DNA of 64,000 nucleotides from Candidatus Aenigmatarchaeota archaeon (GCA_039000725.1 JAWBNO010000001.1:130446-194445), one strand, 5' to 3'. Shown: positions 6,134-64,000, counted from the stretch's first letter. The notes: generated from the sequence alone by a model not told the origin. Translations and numbers: made by a program.

Positions 6134-7618
6134 ATGGAAGAAATTAAAGATAGAAAAATCCTTTTTGTAACTCCTGAACTAAAAACATTCAAATCTAGAG
6201 CTGGAGGATTAGGACAAGTAGCTGAAGAGTTGGTTAAGGCTTTTGGTGAACTAAATTTAAATTTGCATGTGGTGTCTTGCTTGTATAAATATACAATAAT
6301 AGATAGCTACAAGAAAGAAAACGACTTCAGCGATTTAAATCTAGAAGTTATTGATAGAATAAAAATAAAAATTGATAAAGAGTATGAAGCAACTATATAC
6401 AAAACTAAAAAATATGGGATTAACTTTTACTTTTTATATAATGATGAATTGACAGAAGGATTGTATATTGGAGATTTATTAAAATTTGCTATATTTCTAG
6501 GTAAAGGAACTGTTGAAATCATGAAAAAAATTAATTTGATTCCTGATATTATTCACTTACATGATGCCTTAACTTCTTTGGTTCTTTTCTATTCTAAGTA
6601 TGATCCATCTTATTCTGAGTTTAAAAAATGTAAATTTGTGTTTACAATACATAATGCTGGATACGCTTACCAACAAATTTATCCTGTAGATAGAATAAAT
6701 CTAATAAATCTTCCTCCATTTGAATTAAAAAAGCTAATATGGAATGGTAACATAAATTTACTTTATGGAGGAGTAGAAAATAGCGATTTAGTTAATACTG
6801 TTAGTGAAGATTATGCTATAAATTTAAAGGTTAATGGAGAAGGACTTAAAGACGTTTTTGAAAGAAAGAACGTTTTTGGTATAATAAATGGAATTGATAT
6901 AGATTATTGGAGAGACCCTTACTATAAAAATGCTACAAAAGAAAACATACTTAATTTGAAACTTGATAAGAAAATGGAACTAATAAATGAAATAAAGATT
7001 AGAACCGGAAAGAAACTTGATATAAATAAAATAATTGCTATTATGCCAAGAAGATTAAGTAGCCAAAAAGGTTTTGACACATTAATGCCAATTATGGAAA
7101 AACTTCATAATGATTTAGGAATTCAATTTATTGTTCTTGGTGTTGCCCATCCAAATGATGAAATTGGACACCAATGGGCAAATTACTTTTACGAACTTCA
7201 CAATAAGTTACCTGGCTTTGTATTTATTTATTCTTTTGACGAAAATCTAGCAAAACTTATGTATGCAGGAGCAGATATAATACTATATCCATCTTTACCA
7301 AATAAAGAACCATGTGGAACTGGATATATGATGGCTCTAGTAAATGGTACTCCAGTTGTAGGAACAAAAACTGGTGGATTAGCTGAAGTTATAAAAGAGT
7401 TTGATGAAACAACTCTAGAAGGAAATGGTTTCTTAATTTGGAAAGAAGAATATTCTACAGAAACGTTTTTAAGAAAAATTGAAAAAGCGAGAAAGATATT
7501 TGAAGATAGAGAAAAATGGAAATCTTTAGTTTGGAATGCATTTAAAACTGAGGTTGATATAAAGAGTTGTGCTATTGAATATATTAAAAGAGTTTATTTA
7601 CCTGTACTAAAAATTTAA
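6134..7618 (+). CDS. Glycogen/starch synthase-like glycosyltransferase (GT-B fold)
   Basis: 494 aa. N-terminal AGGLGQVAEEL and C-terminal EPCGTGYMMALVNGTPVVGTKTGGLAEVI (E-x7-E-type retaining GT motif). Confidence 0.7.
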   Translation: MEEIKDRKILFVTPELKTFKSRAGGLGQVAEELVKAFGELNLNLHVVSCLYKYTIIDSYKKENDFSDLNLEVIDRIKIKIDKEYEATIYKTKKYGINFYFLYNDELTEGLYIGDLLKFAIFLGKGTVEIMKKINLIPDIIHLHDALTSLVLFYSKYDPSYSEFKKCKFVFTIHNAGYAYQQIYPVDRINLINLPPFELKKLIWNGNINLLYGGVENSDLVNTVSEDYAINLKVNGEGLKDVFERKNVFGIINGIDIDYWRDPYYKNATKENILNLKLDKKMELINEIKIRTGKKLDINKIIAIMPRRLSSQKGFDTLMPIMEKLHNDLGIQFIVLGVAHPNDEIGHQWANYFYELHNKLPGFVFIYSFDENLAKLMYAGADIILYPSLPNKEPCGTGYMMALVNGTPVVGTKTGGLAEVIKEFDETTLEGNGFLIWKEEYSTETFLRKIEKARKIFEDREKWKSLVWNAFKTEVDIKSCAIEYIKRVYLPVLKI

Positions 7619-55691: not shown

Positions 55692-55790
55692 AATTTTTTA
55701 ATAATCCTTATGACTAACTAAAATTCTTTTAATCTCTTTATTATTAACAATATTATAATCACAAGCTTTTTTAAAAACCTTGCAGTTATA

Positions 55791-56051
55791 TTACCTTTCT
55801 ATTAACCATTTCCACAACGGAATAAACTTAATTTTTTTATTTTCAATTTTCAATTCATCTTCATAATCCCAAGTTATTATTAACAAGTTTTTACATTTTA
55901 ATTGTTCACTAGCTTTAATTAATGCTCTTATTTCTCTTTTCTCTATTTCATCTTTACTAGAAGAATAAGTTACTTGAATTAATTGCTTTATTTCTAAACC
56001 TTCCTTTATAACGAAATCAACTTCATTTTGTTGATAATCTTTCCAATAGTA
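55791..56051 (-). repeat. Shared 3' module, copy 1 (long form, from YYWKDYQQNEVDF to the stop)
   Basis: Alignable by eye at nucleotide level with the other copies. Anchors: aaccatttcc, catcttcataatcccaagt, cactagctttt, acttgaattaattg, tttccaatagtaaat. Confidence 0.85.
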
Positions 56052-57065
56052 AATTTCAGCTAAGGGATTTTCGCTAATCTTTCTTTTAAGTTGCAAAAAT
56101 ACACAATTCTCCATTAACCTTCCAATATTTTCTGAAAATTTCGAAAATCTTTTTATGAAAAAATTATCAATAAACATAACTTTTCTTGGTGCTTTTAAAG
56201 AATTCTTTACTTTAGGTGTCAAAATCTCTAAAAATTCTACAAATAAAGAATTTTCTAAGTAGTAAAGATAGTTAGCAACTGTCTCTTTTCCTATTTTATG
56301 TCCAATAGATTTTAAAGTATCAAAAATTTTTGTTATGGTTATGTAAGTTGAGTTAAGTAAAAGTCTTATAAGATCCCTCATTAATTCTTTATTTCTTATA
56401 CCATAACGTTCAAAAATATCGCGAATAAGAAAAGTTTTGAAATATTCCTCAATAAGTAGATATTTTTTCGCTTCATCTGAGAGAACAATCTCAGGTAATC
56501 CACCAAAATTTATATACTCTCTTAATAGGTTTAATTTAAGAGCATTCGTTAATTCCTCTATATTTTCTCCTTTAAATCTTAAGAACTCTAAAAATGATAG
56601 TGGATAAACCTCAAAAGTTATACATCTTCCTCTCAATTCAGTTGGTATTTCTTTACTTGAAAGTTTTGATGATGAGCCAGATAAAATTATTTGATAATTA
56701 AAACTGTCTAACATTCTTCTTACCCATTTGCTCCAGTTAGGAATGTTTTGTATTTCATCTAACAAAAAAACAAGCTTTTTCTTTCCATAAATTTCTTTTA
56801 TAATCTCAGAAAAACAAGTCAAAACTTCTGTTTTCTTTGGCAATCTTTCATCTTCAAAATCTATATAAATTGTATTTTCTTTTCCTATTTTTCTTGCTGT
56901 ATTCAAAAGCAAAAATGTTTTTCCAACTCTTCTGAAACCAACTATTGGTATAGCCTTAACAATTTTCCAATCTATTAACTTACTAGGATCTTTATCTCTC
57001 TCAATTATCTTCGGTAACTCTCTTTCTTCCCATTCTTTCACAAGTTGTTTTAAAATTGTCTTCAT
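55791..57065 (-). CDS. COG1373-type AAA+ ATPase (AAA_14 - wHTH - DUF4143-like), array paralog 1
   Basis: 424 aa. Walker A GFRRVGKT, Walker B FLLDEIQ, sensor SGSSS, wHTH-like segment ITKIFDTLKSIGHKIGKETVANYLYYLENSLFV. Carries the shared C-terminal module YYWKDYQQNEVDFVIK...IPLWKWLIER. Confidence 0.85.
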   Translation of the reverse strand: MKTILKQLVKEWEERELPKIIERDKDPSKLIDWKIVKAIPIVGFRRVGKTFLLLNTARKIGKENTIYIDFEDERLPKKTEVLTCFSEIIKEIYGKKKLVFLLDEIQNIPNWSKWVRRMLDSFNYQIILSGSSSKLSSKEIPTELRGRCITFEVYPLSFLEFLRFKGENIEELTNALKLNLLREYINFGGLPEIVLSDEAKKYLLIEEYFKTFLIRDIFERYGIRNKELMRDLIRLLLNSTYITITKIFDTLKSIGHKIGKETVANYLYYLENSLFVEFLEILTPKVKNSLKAPRKVMFIDNFFIKRFSKFSENIGRLMENCVFLQLKRKISENPLAEIYYWKDYQQNEVDFVIKEGLEIKQLIQVTYSSSKDEIEKREIRALIKASEQLKCKNLLIITWDYEDELKIENKKIKFIPLWKWLIER

Positions 57066-57081
57066 AAAAAATTAGTGTAGA

Positions 57082-57101
57082 ACAATATTTATAAATATTG
57101 T
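57082..57101. promoter_or_regulatory. Perfect 20-bp palindrome acaatattta/taaatattgt upstream of array paralog 1 (TATA-like core)
   Basis: Read directly. The centre lies about 27 nt upstream of the ATG at 57065. The core tttataaa resembles an archaeal TATA box. Confidence 0.55.
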
Positions 57102-57136
57102 ACTATAATACTAGATTTATAGAACAAAATAACAAA

Positions 57137-57379
57137 CTATTGCCTTTCTATTAACCATTTCCATAATGGAAGGCATTTAATTTTTTTGTTCTGAACATTT
57201 AACTCATCTTCATAATCCCAAGTTATTATTAACAAGTTTTTGCATTTTAATTGCTCAGAAGCTTTTAACAAAGCTTTTATTTCCCTTTTCTCAATCTCAT
57301 CTTTACTTGAAGCGTAAGTTGCTTGAATTAGTTGTTTTATTTCTAAACCATTTTTAATTAAAAAATCAACTTCGTAATC
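57137..57379 (-). repeat. Shared 3' module, copy 2 (short form, from DYEVDF)
   Basis: Same anchors as the other copies. Diverges from the long form upstream of the EVDF codons. Confidence 0.85.
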
Positions 57380-58417
57380 ATTTGATTTAAAATAAAAAAT
57401 TTCATTAACTTTTCCTTCAAGTTTTTTCTTTAAAAGCTGTATAGCAACTAAATTTTCAATTTTTTTACCAACATCTTTAGAAAATCTTGGCTCAATTTGA
57501 AAATATATATTATCAACCAAATAACTTTTTACTGGATATTTTGCTCTTTCTCTATATTTAAAAGAAAATCTTTTTATAGGGAAAACAAAAAGAGCCTCTT
57601 CCACATATTTTAAATAATTAGCTAGAGTTTTTTTACTAATTTTTAAACCTATTGATTTTAATTCATTTTCAATTTTTGATATTGAAACATAAGAGGAGGA
57701 ATTAGATATGCAATATCTAACAAAATAATCCATAAGTGCGACATTTTTAATTTTAAATCTTTCTATTATATCTTTGAAAAAAATTGCATCGAAATAAGTT
57801 TTTGCAATATCTAGCTTTTTATTTTTTTCTTCCTGCAAAATAATTTCCGGATATCCGCCAAAATCTATATATTCTTTCAATAATCCTAAAATTTTTCCAA
57901 TTTTTGCTTCAGAAATTTCTTTTTCTATTTTAAATTCTTTAAAATCAAGAAATTCTTTAAAGCTAAATGGAAATAAAACGAAAGAAATACATCTTCCCCT
58001 CAGCTCTGTTGAAATTTCCCTACTTAAAAGTTTTGAAGAAGAGCCAGAAATTATTATTTTATATTTTTGAAAATTATGCAATGTTCTAACAAAAGAAGAC
58101 CAATTATCGAGCTCTTGAATTTCATCGAAAAAAAGAAATATGTTATCTTTAAATAGGTAATTTATTTCTTTCAAAAATTCAGAAATACTAACTTTTTTTA
58201 TTCTGGGGTCTGTAAAATCTAAGTAAACAATATTTTCCTTAGTGAAATTCTTTTCAAAAAGCTCTTTAATAAGCTGAAACATAAAATAAGTTTTTCCAGC
58301 TCTTCTTGGTCCTATAATTGAAACTATATGATTGTTCATCCAAATTTTTAGCTCTCTTTTAATTATTCTTCTTGGCAATTCTTTCTCTTTCCATTCTAAT
58401 AAGACTTCTCTTAACAT
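57137..58417 (-). CDS. COG1373-type AAA+ ATPase, array paralog 2
   Basis: 426 aa. Walker A GPRRAGKT, Walker B FFDEIQ, sensor SGSSS. The shared C-terminal module begins at SNDYEVDFLIK. Confidence 0.85.
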   Translation of the reverse strand: MLREVLLEWKEKELPRRIIKRELKIWMNNHIVSIIGPRRAGKTYFMFQLIKELFEKNFTKENIVYLDFTDPRIKKVSISEFLKEINYLFKDNIFLFFDEIQELDNWSSFVRTLHNFQKYKIIISGSSSKLLSREISTELRGRCISFVLFPFSFKEFLDFKEFKIEKEISEAKIGKILGLLKEYIDFGGYPEIILQEEKNKKLDIAKTYFDAIFFKDIIERFKIKNVALMDYFVRYCISNSSSYVSISKIENELKSIGLKISKKTLANYLKYVEEALFVFPIKRFSFKYRERAKYPVKSYLVDNIYFQIEPRFSKDVGKKIENLVAIQLLKKKLEGKVNEIFYFKSNDYEVDFLIKNGLEIKQLIQATYASSKDEIEKREIKALLKASEQLKCKNLLIITWDYEDELNVQNKKIKCLPLWKWLIERQ

Positions 58418-58428
58418 AAAAGAAATAT

Positions 58429-58459
58429 AGGAAACAAAAAATATATATTTTTGTTTCCT
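58429..58459. promoter_or_regulatory. Inverted repeat aggaaacaaaaa-N7-tttttgtttcct upstream of array paralog 2
   Basis: 12-bp arms with the spacer atatata. The centre lies about 27 nt upstream of the ATG at 58417. Confidence 0.55.
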
Positions 58460-58469
58460 CTAGAAACTA

Positions 58470-58742
58470 CTATAAACTTAGAGTATTTCCTAGCAACCAT
58501 TTCCATAAAGGAATGCATTTAATACTTTTATTTTCAATTTTCAATTCATCTTCATAATCCCAAGTTATTATAAGCAAGTTTTTACACTTTAGTCCTTCAC
58601 TAGCTTTTAGTAAAGCTTTAATTTCTCTTTTTTCAATTTCATCTTTGCTAGATGCATAAGTTACTTGAATTAATTGTTTAACATCTAAATTTTCCTTTAT
58701 AACAAAATCAACTTCATTTTGTTGATAATCTTTCCAATAGTA
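58470..58742 (-). repeat. Shared 3' module, copy 3 (long form plus 6-codon tail)
   Basis: Same anchors. The extreme 3' segment is nearly identical to copy 4. Confidence 0.85.
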
Positions 58743-59759
58743 AATTTCCCAATCACTAAACCAATAACTTTTTCTTCTTAACAACTCTATTGCAACCAAA
58801 TTTTCCATTAGCCTACCTGTATTCTCACTAGTTAAAAATCCGGCAACACCAATTAACCCATTATCAATACAATAAACTTTTTTTGGTGCAACAAATTTTT
58901 GTTTTAATTTAAAACTAAATCTCTCAAGCTTTATTATCAAATAAGCTTCCTCCAATGCACTAACCCAATTAGAAATAGTAAACAAATGTTTTACTGTAGA
59001 AATCTCTTTTAAGGATGAATAAGTGAACTCTTTTGAAAAATTACTAACCAAAAATCTTGCTATTTTTCTCAACTCTTCTTCTCTTTTAATTTTTTCTCTT
59101 TTAACAACATCTTTTTCTATAATATCTTCATAAATTGTTTTTAGTATTTTTTTCCCAAATTTCGGAAATTCTGGAAACCCGCTGTTAAATAAATAATCCT
59201 TAAGATGGTTAAAAATTTGTGCCCTTTCTAGTGTTGTATATGCCTCTAAGTTTAAGTTATTATACACCAAAAACTCTCTAAAGCTAAATGGAAATAAAGT
59301 AAAATCAATATGTCTTCCTGTTAAATGAGTTGCTAATTCGCCAGATAAAAGTTTTGAATTGCTCCCAGTAATTATAACTTTTTTTGTTCTCCTCAATCTA
59401 TTAGCAAAAAGTTCCCAACCTTCAATATTTTGAATCTCATCTAAAACTATGTTCTCTATATTTCCATAAAGCTCATAAAATACTTGTAAAACTTTGTTTA
59501 AATCATCAGCTTTTAATCCCTTCAGTCTCTCATCATCAAAATTTATATAACCAAATTTTTGATCTTTTAAAACTTGCCAAGAGAGAACAGACTTGCCACA
59601 TCTCCTAACACCCAATATTGCTAGAATATTTGGATATTTCAAAAACTTTTGTAATTCTCTTGTTAATTCTCTTTCTATTATTTTTTCTTTCTCAAATATT
59701 TTTTCTATATCTTTTTCTTGCTCTAAAACAACTTCTTTTATTATTTCTTTTGAAAACAT
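58470..59759 (-). CDS. COG1373-type AAA+ ATPase, array paralog 3
   Basis: 429 aa. Walker A GVRRCGKS, Walker B VLDEIQ, sensor TGSNS. Shared C-terminal module with a 6-residue tail extension (GNTLSL). Confidence 0.85.
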   Translation of the reverse strand: MFSKEIIKEVVLEQEKDIEKIFEKEKIIERELTRELQKFLKYPNILAILGVRRCGKSVLSWQVLKDQKFGYINFDDERLKGLKADDLNKVLQVFYELYGNIENIVLDEIQNIEGWELFANRLRRTKKVIITGSNSKLLSGELATHLTGRHIDFTLFPFSFREFLVYNNLNLEAYTTLERAQIFNHLKDYLFNSGFPEFPKFGKKILKTIYEDIIEKDVVKREKIKREEELRKIARFLVSNFSKEFTYSSLKEISTVKHLFTISNWVSALEEAYLIIKLERFSFKLKQKFVAPKKVYCIDNGLIGVAGFLTSENTGRLMENLVAIELLRRKSYWFSDWEIYYWKDYQQNEVDFVIKENLDVKQLIQVTYASSKDEIEKREIKALLKASEGLKCKNLLIITWDYEDELKIENKSIKCIPLWKWLLGNTLSL

Positions 59760-59771
59760 ATATAATTATAT

Positions 59772-59798
59772 TAGAAAGCTTTTTTAAAAAGCTTTCTA
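59772..59798. promoter_or_regulatory. Inverted repeat tagaaagcttttt-t-aaaaagctttcta upstream of array paralog 3
   Basis: 13-bp arms with a 1-nt spacer. The centre lies about 26 nt upstream of the ATG at 59759. Confidence 0.55.
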
Positions 59799-59813
59799 TT
59801 TATATTATTAAAC

Positions 59814-60050
59814 CTAAAACAATAACCATTTCCATAAAGGAATGCATTTAATACTTTTATTTTCAATTTCCAATTCATCTTCATAATCCCAAGTAATTAT
59901 AAGCAAGTTTTTGCACTTTAGTTCTTCACTAGCTTTTAACAAAGCTTTAATTTCCCTTTTTTCAATTTCATCTTTACTAGATGCATAAGTAACTTGAATT
60001 AATTGCTTTATTTCTAAACCTTCTTTTATAACAAAATCAACTTCATAATC
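59814..60050 (-). repeat. Shared 3' module, copy 4 (short form)
   Basis: Same anchors. By hand count, about 9 differences from copy 3 over the first ~185 nt after the aaccatttcc anchor. Confidence 0.85.
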
Positions 60051-61082
60051 ATTGCTGACTAGATAGTAGAATTCAAGCAATGGATTTTTATTCTGTTTTC
60101 TCTTTAATTCTAAAAACACACAATTTTCCATTAACTTTCCAAAATCTTGTGAAAACTTTACAACCTTTGTTAAACCGTTGTCTACAACATAAATTTTCTT
60201 TGGCCAAGATTCTCTAATATGCACCTTTACAGAATACCTATTAAGAAAGAAAAACACTAAGGTATCATTTAATTTATCTAAATAATCATAAACTGTATCT
60301 TTTGAAACTTTTAAATTAGAAGATTTAGTTTTATCGTAAATAGACTTAATTGATACTTCTTTTGAAAAATTTTGCAGAACAAAATTAAGTAAAAATTTTG
60401 AAAAACCTATGTTTCTTATTTCATGTCTCTCTATAAAATCTCTAAACAAAATTAAATCGTAATATTGCTTAATTATATTAATCTTAATTTGGTCATTCAA
60501 TATTACCTCGGGGAAACCACCAAATTCAATATATTCTCTTAAATTTCTTTTTATCTCAACCTCCTTTTCTTTAGACAAAAATTTTTCAATAGAAATTTTT
60601 TTAGCATCCAAAAACTCTCTGAAGCTAAACGGAAATAATACATAACTTAAAGTTCTACCTCTAAGTTTTGTTGAAATCTCTTTACTTAAAAGTTTGGAAG
60701 AAGAACCAGTAATAACTATTTTATAAAGTTTAAGATCATGAATTTCTCTTATTATAATCTCCCAGTTTTTAACATTATGTATTTCATCTAAAAGTAAATA
60801 CTGTGGTTTTATTCCATAAATTTCTTCAAACAATCTTATCATTTCTCTTATATCTCTAAAATTCGCTCCAATTAAACGAGAATCTTCAAAATTTAAATAT
60901 AAGCTATTTGGTTTTAAGTTTTTTATTTGAAAAAGATAATAGGTCTTACCGGCTCTTCTAGGACCTATAATTGAAATTATAAAATTTGTATCCAATGGTA
61001 TTTCTAGTTCTCTTTTTATTATTTGTGGTTGAAATTCTTCATATTCCTTAAAAAAATCTATTAAAGCTTCCCTATTTATCAT
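59814..61082 (-). CDS. COG1373-type AAA+ ATPase, array paralog 4
   Basis: 422 aa. Walker A GPRRAGKT, Walker B LLDEIH, sensor TGSSS. The shared C-terminal module begins at SNDYEVDFVIK. Confidence 0.85.
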   Translation of the reverse strand: MINREALIDFFKEYEEFQPQIIKRELEIPLDTNFIISIIGPRRAGKTYYLFQIKNLKPNSLYLNFEDSRLIGANFRDIREMIRLFEEIYGIKPQYLLLDEIHNVKNWEIIIREIHDLKLYKIVITGSSSKLLSKEISTKLRGRTLSYVLFPFSFREFLDAKKISIEKFLSKEKEVEIKRNLREYIEFGGFPEVILNDQIKINIIKQYYDLILFRDFIERHEIRNIGFSKFLLNFVLQNFSKEVSIKSIYDKTKSSNLKVSKDTVYDYLDKLNDTLVFFFLNRYSVKVHIRESWPKKIYVVDNGLTKVVKFSQDFGKLMENCVFLELKRKQNKNPLLEFYYLVSNDYEVDFVIKEGLEIKQLIQVTYASSKDEIEKREIKALLKASEELKCKNLLIITWDYEDELEIENKSIKCIPLWKWLLF

Positions 61083-61098
61083 AATATAGTATATTAGG

Positions 61099-61142
61099 AA
61101 GGAAAATATATTTAAAAATTTTCCTTATAGCAAGGAAAATAT
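61099..61142. promoter_or_regulatory. aaggaaaat motif in triplicate upstream of array paralog 4: inverted pair 61099-61107 / 61118-61126 plus direct copy 61132-61140
   Basis: 9-bp arms with the spacer atatttaaaa. A third direct copy (aaggaaaatat) lies 25 nt further upstream. Confidence 0.5.
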
Positions 61143-61159
61143 TATTCCAGTTAAGATAA

Positions 61160-61417
61160 CTACTCTAATAACCATTTCCACAACGGAATAAACTTAATTT
61201 TTTTATTTTCAATTTCCAATTCATCTTCATAATCCCAAGTTATTATTAACAAATTTTTACATTTTAATAGCTCACTAGCTTTTATTAACGCTTTTATTTC
61301 CCTTTTTTCAATCTCATCTTTGCTAGAAGCATAAGTAACTTGAATTAATTGTTTAACATCTAAACCTTCTTTTATAACAAAATCAACTTCATTTTGTTGA
61401 TAATCTTTCCAATAGTA
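61160..61417 (-). repeat. Shared 3' module, copy 5 (long form)
   Basis: Same anchors. The extreme 3' segment ccacaacggaataaacttaatttttttattttcaatt is shared with copy 1. Confidence 0.85.
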
Positions 61418-62416
61418 AATCTCTTGAAGAGGGGTAGAATTTGTTTTTCTTAATAATTCAAGAAAGACTATGTTTTCCATCAACTTTCCGACATCTTTAG
61501 AAAATCTTACTAAAACTGAAATTCCTGTATCTACAACATATACTTTTTTTGGCCAGCTTCTTCTAATATAAATGCTTTTTGAAAATCTGTCAACAAAAAA
61601 GACATTTAATGTATCTTGCAACTTATCAATATAATCATAAAGAGTTTTATTAGTAAAGTTAACCCTTTCTCTTATAGTCTTTCCTATTTTATTTATACTA
61701 ATTTCTTTTCCAAAATTTTGAAAAACAAATTCAAATAAAAATCTTCCCAACTCAAAACTCTTTATTTTATGTCTTTCAACAAAATCTGAAAGAAAAATTT
61801 CATCAAAATATCTTTTTAATAATTTTTCTTTTTCATCACTAAAAACAACTTCTGGATATCCACCCTCTTTTAAGTATCTATCCAAGAATTTCAACAAACT
61901 TCCCTTTTCTTCAAAAGTATAGTTTTGCTTAATTTCAAAATTATTGGCAACCAAAAACTCTCTAAAACTAAATGGTAATAATAAATAGTTTATTGTCCTT
62001 CCTCTTAATTGAGTCGCTATTTCTTTTGGCAATAATTTAGAAGAAGATCCAGTAATGAAAACCTTATACTCTCTATCTATTAAAGTTCTCACTAAACTTT
62101 CCCAACCTTCAACAATTTGAATTTCATCGAGAAGAATAGTTTTTGGAGAAAAACCTTTAACCTCAACAAAAATTTTTAGTATTTCAAAAAAATCCTCTGC
62201 TCTAACATTTCTAAAAGCTAGATCTTCAAAATTTATGTAAAGGGAATCTTTGTATAAAGTGTTTAAAAGATAAAGCATGTACCATGTTTTTCCGGCCCTT
62301 CTCGGTCCTAAAATAGAAATTGCCTTATCTTTAACATCTTTTATTTCCAATTCTCTTTTAATTCCTTTAAACTTCTTTTCTCTTATGAAATAATCTTTTA
62401 TCAGTTCTTTATTCAT
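61160..62416 (-). CDS. COG1373-type AAA+ ATPase, array paralog 5
   Basis: 418 aa. Walker A GPRRAGKT, Walker B LLDEIQ, sensor TGSSS. The shared C-terminal module begins at YYWKDYQQNEVDF. Confidence 0.85.
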   Translation of the reverse strand: MNKELIKDYFIREKKFKGIKRELEIKDVKDKAISILGPRRAGKTWYMLYLLNTLYKDSLYINFEDLAFRNVRAEDFFEILKIFVEVKGFSPKTILLDEIQIVEGWESLVRTLIDREYKVFITGSSSKLLPKEIATQLRGRTINYLLLPFSFREFLVANNFEIKQNYTFEEKGSLLKFLDRYLKEGGYPEVVFSDEKEKLLKRYFDEIFLSDFVERHKIKSFELGRFLFEFVFQNFGKEISINKIGKTIRERVNFTNKTLYDYIDKLQDTLNVFFVDRFSKSIYIRRSWPKKVYVVDTGISVLVRFSKDVGKLMENIVFLELLRKTNSTPLQEIYYWKDYQQNEVDFVIKEGLDVKQLIQVTYASSKDEIEKREIKALIKASELLKCKNLLIITWDYEDELEIENKKIKFIPLWKWLLE

Positions 62417-62420
62417 AATA

Positions 62421-62446
62421 ATATAAATTCTATTAAAAATTTATAT
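62421..62446. promoter_or_regulatory. Weak A/T-only inverted repeat atataaat-N10-atttatat upstream of array paralog 5
   Basis: 8-bp arms made only of A/T, so this could be chance in this genome. Listed for completeness. Confidence 0.25.
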
Positions 62447-62476
62447 CCTTGAAATACAAATTTTCATAACAAAATA

Positions 62477-62737
62477 TTACCTTTCTAACAACCATTTCCA
62501 TAATGGTATGCATTTAATTGTTTTTTCATTAACTTTTAACTCATCTTCATAGTCCCATGTAATTATTTGCAAGTTTTTACATTTTAATAGCTCGCTAGCT
62601 TTTATTAACGCTTTTATTTCTCTTTTATCAATTTCATCCTTGCTTGAAACATAAGTTACTTGGATTAGTTGTTTAATATTTAATCCTTGTTTTATTACAA
62701 AATCGACCTCATTTTGCTGATAATCTTTCCAATAATA
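62477..62737 (-). repeat. Shared 3' module, copy 6 (long form, most diverged)
   Basis: Same anchors but with more substitutions (for example catagtcccatgtaattatttgc). Confidence 0.8.
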
Positions 62738-63736
62738 AACTTCTTTATAACCCTTTCTCAATAACTCTATAGCAACCAAGTTTTCAATTAATCTACCAAT
62801 ATTTTCAGAAAATTTAAAACTGGTAAAATTCGGGAAAGATAAATCCATTGAATAAACTTTCTTCTTAGATTTAATTTGATTTTTAATACTAAAAGAAAAT
62901 GCATCTAAATGAAAAATTAAATAAGCTTCTTTGAGATATTCGAAATAATTTTGAACAGTATGGACGCTTCTAAAATTAAGAATTTCATTTATTTTATTAA
63001 AACTTTGTAGAGTTGAAATATTAGAAATTAAATATCTTGCCAGCTCATAAATTTTTGATGAAAATCTTAAATTATATCTCTTAACGATGTCTTTAAATAT
63101 AATGCTATCGAAAAGCATTCTAACATAATTCTCCGGCCTATACTTTTCTATTACAACTTCTGGAAGCCCACCAATTTTTAAATATTCATTCAATAAATTT
63201 AGCAATTTTCCTCTTAATTCTTTTATTTCTAATTCTTCCTTTCTTATCTTAAAATCCTTTGCTTTTAAAAACTCTCTAAAGCTGAATGGAAAATTTTCTA
63301 TTTCAATATATCTTCCTGTTAAATGAGTTGCTAGTTCTTTGCTAAGTAATTTTGCATTAGAGCCAGTAATTATAATATTATAACCGCTTCTTTGCAATCT
63401 GTTTACAAAAAGTTCCCATTTTTCTAAATTTTGGATCTCATCAAAAAACAAAAAATTAACTTTTCCATATATTTCATGCAAATTTTTTAATATTTCATCA
63501 TAATCTTTAACCTCTACTAATCTCTCGTCATCAAAATTTACATAACCAAAGTTAAATTTTTTTATTAAATGAATTCCTAAAAATGATTTCCCACTTCTTC
63601 TTAATCCTATAATAACCTTTATTAATTTTGTATTGAGATATGGTATTATTTTCTCTATGTTTTCTCTTTCAATAAATTTTCCTTTAACAATTTCTTCAAC
63701 TTCAATTTTCTGTCTTAACAATACTTCTTTTATCAT
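62477..63736 (-). CDS. COG1373-type AAA+ ATPase, array paralog 6
   Basis: Walker A GLRRSGKS, Walker B FFDEIQ, sensor TGSNA, shared C-terminal module. Start placed at the ATG (MIKEVLL); the track's GTG start at 63751 adds 5 codons. Confidence 0.8.
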   Translation of the reverse strand: MIKEVLLRQKIEVEEIVKGKFIERENIEKIIPYLNTKLIKVIIGLRRSGKSFLGIHLIKKFNFGYVNFDDERLVEVKDYDEILKNLHEIYGKVNFLFFDEIQNLEKWELFVNRLQRSGYNIIITGSNAKLLSKELATHLTGRYIEIENFPFSFREFLKAKDFKIRKEELEIKELRGKLLNLLNEYLKIGGLPEVVIEKYRPENYVRMLFDSIIFKDIVKRYNLRFSSKIYELARYLISNISTLQSFNKINEILNFRSVHTVQNYFEYLKEAYLIFHLDAFSFSIKNQIKSKKKVYSMDLSFPNFTSFKFSENIGRLIENLVAIELLRKGYKEVYYWKDYQQNEVDFVIKQGLNIKQLIQVTYVSSKDEIDKREIKALIKASELLKCKNLQIITWDYEDELKVNEKTIKCIPLWKWLLER

Positions 63737-63743
63737 AAAATTA

Positions 63744-63775
63744 TACTGCACAAAAATTTATAAATTTATGCAGTA
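63744..63775. promoter_or_regulatory. Inverted repeat tactgca-N18-tgcagta upstream of array paralog 6
   Basis: 7-bp G/C-containing arms around the partly palindromic core caaaaatttataaattta. The centre lies about 23 nt upstream of the ATG at 63736. Confidence 0.5.
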
Positions 63776-63793
63776 CAACTTTTTAACTGAAAT

Positions 63794-63925
63794 TTAAAAT
63801 TTTAACAACCATTTCCATAAAGGGATACATTTAATCGTTTTATTATTAACTTTCAATTCATCTTCATAATCCCAAGTTATTACAAGCAAGTTTTTGCATT
63901 TTAGCTCTTCACTAGCTTTTAGTAA
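63794..63925 (-). repeat. Shared 3' module, copy 7 (solo, truncated)
   Basis: Matches the distal half of the module only. Confidence 0.75.
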
Positions 63926-63937
63926 ATAATTACCTTT
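63794..63937 (-). pseudogene. Truncated 3' remnant of a seventh COG1373-type ATPase paralog (C-terminal ~43 codons only)
   Basis: Hand translation gives (TGA)KGNYLLKASEELKCKNLLVITWDYEDELKVNNKTIKCIPLWKWLLKF*. Homology to the shared module runs about 63794-63925, then stops abruptly. There is no start codon and no ATPase part. Confidence 0.75.
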
Positions 63938-64000
63938 TCAACTTTAGTTTCAAAAAATTCTTTATGTGTTATTTCTCTAAAGACAGAATGTTCCAAATCA
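63919..64000 (-). CDS. 3' end of an unidentified gene running off the window (partial)
   Basis: The minus-strand frame is open from the window edge and reads ...DLEHSVFREITHKEFFETKVEKVIIY* with a TAA at 63919-63921. That stop lies inside the last few nt of the remnant block. Too short to identify. Confidence 0.35.
   Translation of the reverse strand, partial: DLEHSVFREITHKEFFETKVEKVIIY

Follow-up and report, generated by a model that had tools for sequence, protein, structure and literature searches.

We analysed a window of 64,000 nucleotides (nt) from a Candidatus Aenigmatarchaeota archaeon (GCA_039000725.1, JAWBNO010000001.1:130446-194445), in which six intact minus-strand paralogues of 418–429 aa each, identified by open reading frame (ORF) calls, lie in tandem between positions 55791 and 63751. 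They were named g1–g6 in rising coordinate order. Close homologues were found in hot-spring metagenome-assembled genomes (MAGs) of Candidatus Aenigmatarchaeota, and the host is a hot-spring genome of this DPANN lineage. Each gene consists of a strongly diverged gene body and a similar C-terminal tail, which is encoded by a module of ~230 nt running from an EVDF motif to the stop codon. We consider it likely that the tails of this array stay alike through clade-wide purifying selection combined with recombination among the resident modules. The tail protein is under strong purifying selection, and the tails undergo homologous recombination, in the form of conversion patches and of crossovers, which results in concerted evolution and in turnover of the array.

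Sequence similarity within the array

Pairwise protein identity among the six copies was 0.33–0.48 (mean 0.38) over the ~345 residues upstream of EVDF and 0.79–0.92 (mean 0.85) over the ~75 residues from EVDF to the stop codon. Nonsynonymous divergence (dN) was 0.035–0.16 in the module against 0.44–0.73 upstream, with a ratio to synonymous divergence (omega) of 0.03–0.2; much of the tail similarity is therefore due to constraint at the protein level. Identity of the module at the DNA level was 0.79–0.92 over all pairs, and the longest exact run common to a pair measured 14–47 nt, in most cases less than 40 nt. The proportion of synonymous differences (pS) in the module was 0.35–0.77, and third-position identity was 0.62–0.74 in the block against ~0.45 upstream.

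Upstream of the module, the proportion of identical residues encoded by the same codon (the same-codon fraction) was 0.57, as compared to 0.56 expected from codon usage, so that synonymous sites are saturated there and the gene bodies must have diverged anciently. In the module the fraction rose to 0.70 (0.56 expected), with values of 0.80–0.84 for the pairs g1–g3, g1–g5 and g3–g4. The modules of g1–g6 and g4–g6 are synonymously saturated (same-codon 0.57 and 0.52, against 0.56–0.57), yet share 83% protein identity. Synonymous divergence is thus lower inside the tract than outside, although the excess of common codons is modest in the window and nil for these two pairs. Rare codons common to different pairs occur in patches along the module, the pairwise homoplasy index (PHI) test on the module was significant (p = 0.0004 with a 40-nt window, 0.003 with 60 nt), and 48% of informative site pairs in the module are incompatible.

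A first-pass annotation of this region had described copies with a nearly identical tail; six are confirmed as complete genes, and a seventh, truncated module lies at 63797–63925. For the copies at 58470 and 59814 (g3 and g4) it had counted 69 of 74 residues as shared, close to the 70 of 75 found here, and ~9 differences in 185 nt, where we found 12. This pair, given there as the example of near-identity in DNA, turned out to be the best one of a set that spans 0.79–0.92; near-identity at third positions, also proposed, does not agree with the 0.62–0.74 measured in the block or with the saturation of two pairs. The distribution of sequence variants was described correctly: YYWKDYQQN occurs in the copies at 55791, 58470, 61160 and 62477 and SNDY in those at 57137 and 59814, and of the variants at the extreme 3' end, KKIKFIPLWKWL is shared by 55791 and 61160 and NKSIKCIPLWKWLL by 58470 and 59814. 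The 15-mer tttccaatagtaaat, attributed to four copies, was located in three (56040, 58731 and 61406).

Divergence between close orthologues

The same-species MAG bins23 (loci L001 and L033), which matches the window at ~99.6%, allowed orthologous copies to be compared directly. The N-terminal part of g2 is 99% identical to that of its L033 orthologue. Between g4 and its orthologue L001_7103 there are 4 mismatches in nt 1–1020 and 39 in the last 250 nt, where the module is 84% identical; g1 and its bins23 orthologue differ at 9 positions in the first 1020 nt and at 26 in the last ~250, and g6 and its orthologue from the related genome GXS18 at 16 and 52 positions of the same two segments. The g6 pair from the window and bins23 has only 4 mismatches in 1272 nt, module included. 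Of the 36 orthologue pairs whose gene bodies are at least 93% identical, 22 had diverged 3–42 times more in the module than elsewhere in the gene (p<0.001); lineages that yielded only one or two copies did not show this excess. The altered parts of the module in the collinear g1 pair copy the neighbouring g2-type and g0-type modules (g0 being a seventh gene, described below), and this patchwork consists of short conversion patches. The 5' limit of the divergence between orthologues coincides with the end of similarity among paralogues, at EVDF.

Comparison across genomes

We assembled 138 homologues from 76 loci. The comparison genomes are short-read MAGs, with the exception of Nanoarchaeota YN1 (L007), whose record is titled a complete genome. 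At 55% identity, the gene bodies group into 42 subfamilies, and those of the window represent six ancient subfamilies with closer relatives in other genomes, even of other phyla, than next door. Full-length homologues of g4 from Thermoplasmata, Altiarchaeales, Brockarchaeota and others are 60–64% identical to it, closer than g4's own neighbours, and the same module is kept in these other archaeal phyla. Among the 13 genomes with at least three copies, the nearest relative of an N-terminal part was never in the same genome, whereas the nearest relative of a module often was (in three genomes, for example, this held for 4 of 4, 5 of 5 and 7 of 8 copies). The module is closer among paralogues of one lineage than among orthologues between genomes, and the gene body behaves in the opposite way, which is the pattern of concerted evolution.

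At equal gene-body identity (0.3–0.4), module identity was 0.84 within a genome and 0.66 between genomes; pairs of non-orthologous genes from different genomes share 66% of module residues and ~35% of those upstream. In each of the 13 genomes with at least three copies, only the module showed a same-codon excess, and between the window and the genome bin201 the module same-codon fraction was 0.51, a saturated value, at 77% amino acid identity. Substitutions characteristic of a group of genomes run across subfamilies: ASNK and CKD are present in 15 of 15 copies of bins47 and ZZQ25; in the window and bins23 genomes, both are absent from all 11 intact copies, where Ser stands for that Asn and Asn for that Asp. 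In YN1, four paralogues from different subfamilies have module-specific indels in common. In other genomes, SNDY and the other linker variants go with the N-terminal subfamily, and they lie outside the exchanged tract, which begins at EVDF.

In related DPANN genomes, two or three scaffolds together hold at least 12 copies (bins47) or at least 15 (GXS18) (L005 8607–20942, L023, L002, L014, L022). Were these genomes of the small size typical of DPANN archaea, the copies would take up a large share of the coding capacity. In addition, a contig of a WOR-3 bacterium MAG (JBDRXT010000052.1, L020) holds two genes of the family with bodies 96–98% identical at the DNA level to those of Aenigmatarchaeota bins47 (L023); either the contig was mis-binned, or the genes passed between domains very recently.

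Array order

The order of subfamilies along the array differs between related genomes. It is H-E-A-C-F-I in the window, pseudogene-A-H-E... and ...C-F-I-C in bins23, G-C-H-L-A-Q in GXS18 and L-A-D-H-B-Q-R-M-I in bins47. A comparison of module tails anchored at their ends was confounded by variable tail length, and pairwise alignments were used instead. They revealed that the last 85–115 nt of a module and the following spacer travel with the downstream gene while the upstream body changes. The tail and spacer before H are 98–100% identical in three genomes, in which the preceding body is a pseudogene or belongs to subfamily A or subfamily C. Those before A are alike in the window and in L001, with a preceding body of subfamily E in one and a pseudogene in the other; the spacer between g5 and g4 and, before it, the final ~115 nt of the g5 module also occur upstream of the A gene in L001. 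As the tail of the module stays with the downstream gene, crossovers fall inside the module.

Gene bodies in the window and GXS18 are unequally related, with 98.4% identity for H, 97.3% for F and 74–85% for A, E and C. This range of 74–98%, as judged from the alignments, suggests a flow of cassettes between genomes.

Protein family and predicted structure

All six proteins matched the Pfam profile AAA_14 at 114–124 bits (cut-off 27) and, C-terminal to this ATPase, DUF4143 at 60–93 bits (cut-off 28.1). Walker A and B motifs are intact in each of them, and the G-x-RR-x-GK[TS] and DEIQ columns are invariant. The PADLOC profile PDLC04787 for PDC-S01 was matched end to end by all six (E 1e-92 to 1e-112, positions ~8–408 of 412); the values for g1 were 2.3e-34 for AAA_14, 3e-17 for DUF4143 and 2.2e-99 for PDC-S01. 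The architecture of the family comprises an AAA_14 AAA+ core, then the helical/winged-helix DUF4143 part and then a PD-(D/E)xK-like C-terminal domain. PDC-S01 is a candidate single-gene defence family in PADLOC (AAA_14 + DUF4143; COG1373), and a defence role of the array genes is presumed. The family combines an ATPase with a PD-(D/E)xK-superfamily domain (PMC12988326; PMC3424549). It has been reported as the fourth commonest prokaryotic defence candidate and as enriched in Archaea; DPANN genomes are reported to be enriched in several such candidates, most of which, PDC-S01 among them, await antiviral validation (PMC12988326).

In the AlphaFold2 model of g4, with a predicted local distance difference test (pLDDT) score of 92.2, an AAA+ core is followed by a helical/winged-helix part, and residues 314–421 form a C-terminal alpha-beta-beta-beta-alpha-beta domain. 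The elements of the latter (helices H, strands E) are H314–332, E336–342, E347–354, E357–364, H375–388 and E393–397, an order that fits the PD-(D/E)xK core. The g4 module begins at strand beta2 (E347), within the C-terminal domain, so its limit does not coincide with a domain boundary. Within the gene body, conservation is lowest in alignment columns 241–330, which correspond to the winged-helix part of the model. A whole-chain Foldseek search with g4 returned Orc1/Cdc6, RFC, RuvB and other AAA+ proteins as its best matches; the AAA+ part dominates this search, which is silent on the tail domain. The g4 sequence had no meaningful match in the PDB (best E 0.31).

Mrr_cat exceeded its cut-off of 21 in g6 alone (23.1–26.6 bits, residues 323–400). 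E319, E347 and D349 are invariant across the clade. The ExK of distant family members (IPVEVK, AFEAK) aligns to Q-V-T, with Q in 129 and T in 116 of the 138 sequences; Q-V-T is present in all six copies and occupies residues 363–365 of g4 (~59994–59986, minus strand). The catalytic D ... (D/E)xK motif is not retained in the clade that carries the conserved tail, and the PD-(D/E)xK-like domain may have a changed catalytic activity or none.

Layout of the array

The features of the array are listed in Table 1. The listed start of g6 is GTG, and an in-frame ATG (MIKEVLL...) lies five codons downstream.

Table 1. Genes, remnants and spacers of the array in the window. Subfamily refers to the N-terminal part; module coordinates were taken from tblastn.
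Feature	Position	Strand	Description	Module or palindrome
g0 remnant	55705..55748	minus	degenerate first ~44 nt of a seventh gene, subfamily C, gone from the window genome	
g1	55791..57065	minus	424 aa, AAA_14 + DUF4143, subfamily I	module 55791-56024
g2-g1 spacer	57066..57136	minus	71 nt	palindrome 57073-57121
g2	57137..58417	minus	426 aa, AAA_14 + DUF4143, subfamily F	module 57137-57373
g3-g2 spacer	58418..58469	minus	52 nt	palindrome 58426-58462
g3	58470..59759	minus	429 aa, AAA_14 + DUF4143, subfamily C	module 58470-58715
g4-g3 spacer	59760..59813	minus	54 nt	palindrome 59762-59808
g4	59814..61082	minus	422 aa, AAA_14 + DUF4143, subfamily A	module 59814-60044
g5-g4 spacer	61083..61159	minus	77 nt	palindrome 61115-61143
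g5	61160..62416	minus	418 aa, AAA_14 + DUF4143, subfamily E	module 61160-61390
g6-g5 spacer	62417..62476	minus	60 nt	palindrome 62423-62477
g6	62477..63751	minus	424 aa, AAA_14 + DUF4143, subfamily H	module 62477-62710
Relic-g6 spacer	63752..63796	minus	45 nt, 98-100% identical in L001 and L002	palindrome 63737-63782
Module relic	63797..63925	minus	last 42 codons and stop, LLKASEELKCKNLLVITWDYEDELKVNNKTIKCIPLWKWLLKF; no in-frame gene body upstream	
Decayed 5' family fragment	63926..64000	minus	directly fused to the relic; cut by the window end	

The relic and the decayed 5' fragment fused to it form an internally deleted pseudogene. The upstream end of the array beyond position 64000 was inferred from the 99.6% relative (L001), in which the junction between pseudogene and relic is identical (6760–6907) and is preceded by a broken Walker A (IIGPRRSS followed by a stop). 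We considered whether the relic junction is one recombination hot spot and rejected the idea, since the identity of the junction in the window and L001 points to one ancestral event. The tail of the relic and its spacer also precede the H gene in two further genomes, where they are joined to intact A and C bodies. At the other end, the window lacks at 55704/55705 a segment of 2355 bp that the 99.6% relative has kept (L033 3551–5949) and that held g0 and an ORF of ~370 aa with a hydrophobic N-terminus; this deletion does not end in a module.

All inter-gene spacers (45–77 nt) hold an AT-rich palindrome, differing in sequence and often with a TTTTTAAAAA- or TATATA-like core. Two of these palindromes score as terminator-like hairpins, and a similar one follows g1 near 55760. 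They could be terminators, or operator or promoter elements particular to each downstream gene. A sigma-70 promoter scan returned 51 sites against 50.4 expected, a model that is inapplicable to an archaeon. Glycosyltransferase genes adjoin the array, and in the near-identical relative an S-layer gene lies on the other side. No recombinase was present among these near neighbours (glycosyltransferases, S-layer protein), the search having covered the near flanks only, and a tandem-repeat scan gave trivial low-score repeats and no notable simple repeats.

Discussion

Several results weigh against constraint and recombination as joint causes of the tail similarity, or limit what can be concluded from them. 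Module dS ranges from 0.5 to more than 2, and a GENECONV-like longest-fragment permutation test on the six modules found no outstanding long tract (minimum global p 0.20). The same-codon fraction is 0.68 within the window and hardly lower, at 0.67, between the window and GXS18, which indicates that homogenisation acts on the pool of a genus-like group and not strictly on one genome. The arrangement pseudogene-A-H in bins23 may be mis-joined, and both bins23 contigs end inside array genes. With regard to function, the replacement of the canonical ExK by QVT makes nuclease activity doubtful.

The first-pass annotation had preferred gene conversion to selection alone. Recombination is borne out by the comparison across genomes; the argument from third positions is not, and purifying selection does much of the work. 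It had also described a mosaic that contradicts the N-terminal subtypes. The linker variants do not fit this, as they track the subfamily elsewhere and lie outside the tract. Of two tests for mosaicism in the module, PHI was significant (p = 0.0004) and the longest-fragment test, of the GENECONV kind that the annotation had suggested, was not (global p at least 0.20). It had further named synonymous divergence as high in the 3' block as in the 5' part as evidence against conversion, and this was found in part, with a same-codon fraction of 0.70 against 0.56 expected and two saturated pairs.

Purifying selection alone, in which the tail would simply be under the strongest constraint in the protein and copies would exchange nothing, would fit the retention of the module across phyla, the omega of 0.03–0.2, the synonymous saturation of g1–g6 and g4–g6 at 83% protein identity and the non-significant longest-fragment test in the window. 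We nevertheless hold it to be highly improbable, given that it leaves unexplained the close orthologues with modules 3–42 times more diverged, the substitutions and indels that are specific to a genome and run across subfamilies, and the PHI result (p = 0.0004) together with a same-codon excess found in the module only. It is similarly very unlikely that the mosaics and orders are false products of short-read metagenome assembly, with contigs mis-threaded through the repeated module. In favour of such an error, only one comparison genome is not a MAG, and both bins23 contigs break off within array genes; however, exact matches between modules in the window reach 47 nt at most and in most cases less than 40 nt, and even 47 nt falls short of usual read lengths and final k-mers. 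The pattern, common indels included, is also seen in the complete-genome record of YN1 (L007) and recurs in MAGs from many samples and sites, and g6 agrees with its bins23 orthologue at 1268 of 1272 nt, module included.

The conserved flank could also be the target of dedicated switching into an expressed copy, as in a programmed variation (contingency) locus. The first-pass annotation had drawn this likeness, and its description of a recombinogenic flank on variable cassettes is sustained: conserved repeats do bound variable cassettes, and array order does shift between 99.6%-identical genomes. The likeness to a contingency locus goes no further, with all six copies complete, each with intact Walker A/B, its own start codon and its own spacer, and with no layout of silent cassettes and an expression site. 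The near flanks examined contain no recombinase, notable tandem or simple repeats are lacking, and the limits of exchange follow the end of similarity and not a fixed site; we give programmed switching very little credence. Foreign gene-body capture, in which incoming N-terminal cassettes recombine into resident genes and the resident tail is kept, is a possibility of more substance, if still on the unlikely side. It would account for the contrast between H (98.4%) and F (97.3%) on the one hand and A, E and C (74–85%) on the other in the comparison of the window with GXS18, for a highly similar H segment that begins midway through the upstream module and reaches the head of H's own module, and for subfamilies common to several phyla. 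It does not account for the patchy mosaics inside modules of collinear orthologues (g1 and bins23), and two substitutions fixed in 15 copies need exchange among resident modules too. Capture of gene bodies and exchange among resident tails are not mutually exclusive.

Under joint constraint and recombination, purifying selection across the clade and exchange among the modules keep the last ~75 residues, from beta2 to the C-terminal helix, alike. Recombination takes two forms, gene conversion in short patches of tens of nucleotides and crossovers within the module by which units are inserted, deleted or relocated. The unit exchanged is offset from the gene, comprising the tail of the upstream module, the spacer, the gene body and the head of the gene's own module. 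The exchange limit lies at the end of similarity and inside a structural domain, as would be expected of homology-dependent rather than site-specific recombination. The variable ATPase/winged-helix part might set the recognition of each paralogue, and the common tail might serve as a shared output or assembly surface; matched tails within a cell might be favoured through a partner common to the copies or through their co-assembly. Three ideas follow, namely that the variable part is a specificity determinant, that the constant tail is a shared surface and that tails must match within a cell.

A more speculative extension, to which we assign a low probability, is that the tail provides homology arms around each body, by which CRISPR-poor DPANN and other thermophilic archaea swap recognition cassettes. 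The array would then be an innate immune repertoire driven by recombination, whose matched and catalytically altered PD-(D/E)xK-like tails let paralogues co-assemble or share an effector. If this is true, recognition cassettes are gained, lost and swapped within and between genomes.

Comparison with known systems

The array's six proteins share with the PDC-S01 family both a full-length profile match and the architecture of an ATPase with a putative PD-(D/E)xK-superfamily domain, and the array clade differs from it in having QVT for the canonical ExK. In the literature on DUF4143, COG1373, PF13173/PF13635 and PDC-S01, we found no description of tandem arrays with a homogenised tail.

Toxin loci of the Rhs and contact-dependent inhibition (CDI) type have a conserved N-terminal part, variable tips and orphan cassettes without starts. 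They resemble the array in their tandem variable modules and in a conserved coding stretch that supplies homology for exchange; however, the polarity is reversed, every copy here is a complete gene, and there is no sequence relationship. [quoted passage not shown] The likeness lies in tandem families of nucleotide-binding, immune-type proteins whose repertoire turns over by recombination among paralogues. In contrast to NLR clusters, the homogenised part here is a constant C-terminal domain, and the immune role of the array is presumed.

A precedent in Archaea is the pair mtrA-1 and mtrA-2 of methanogens, which has undergone domain-limited, long-lasting gene conversion between paralogues (PMC4632066). 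There, as in the array, one domain of duplicated archaeal genes is homogenised and the rest differs (PMC4632066). The mtrA genes are two copies in one operon, whereas here at least 6–15 copies per genome and dozens of ancient subfamilies draw on one tail pool; unlike in mtrA, crossovers in the tail also reshuffle the arrays. The locus is a further example of domain-limited concerted evolution, to which it adds arrays of many ancient subfamilies under one lineage-specific tail. Gene trees of the AAA_14 + DUF4143 family are mosaic, and trees per segment are needed. Recombination in the tail both homogenises and reshuffles these arrays, on the time scale of 0.4% genome divergence.

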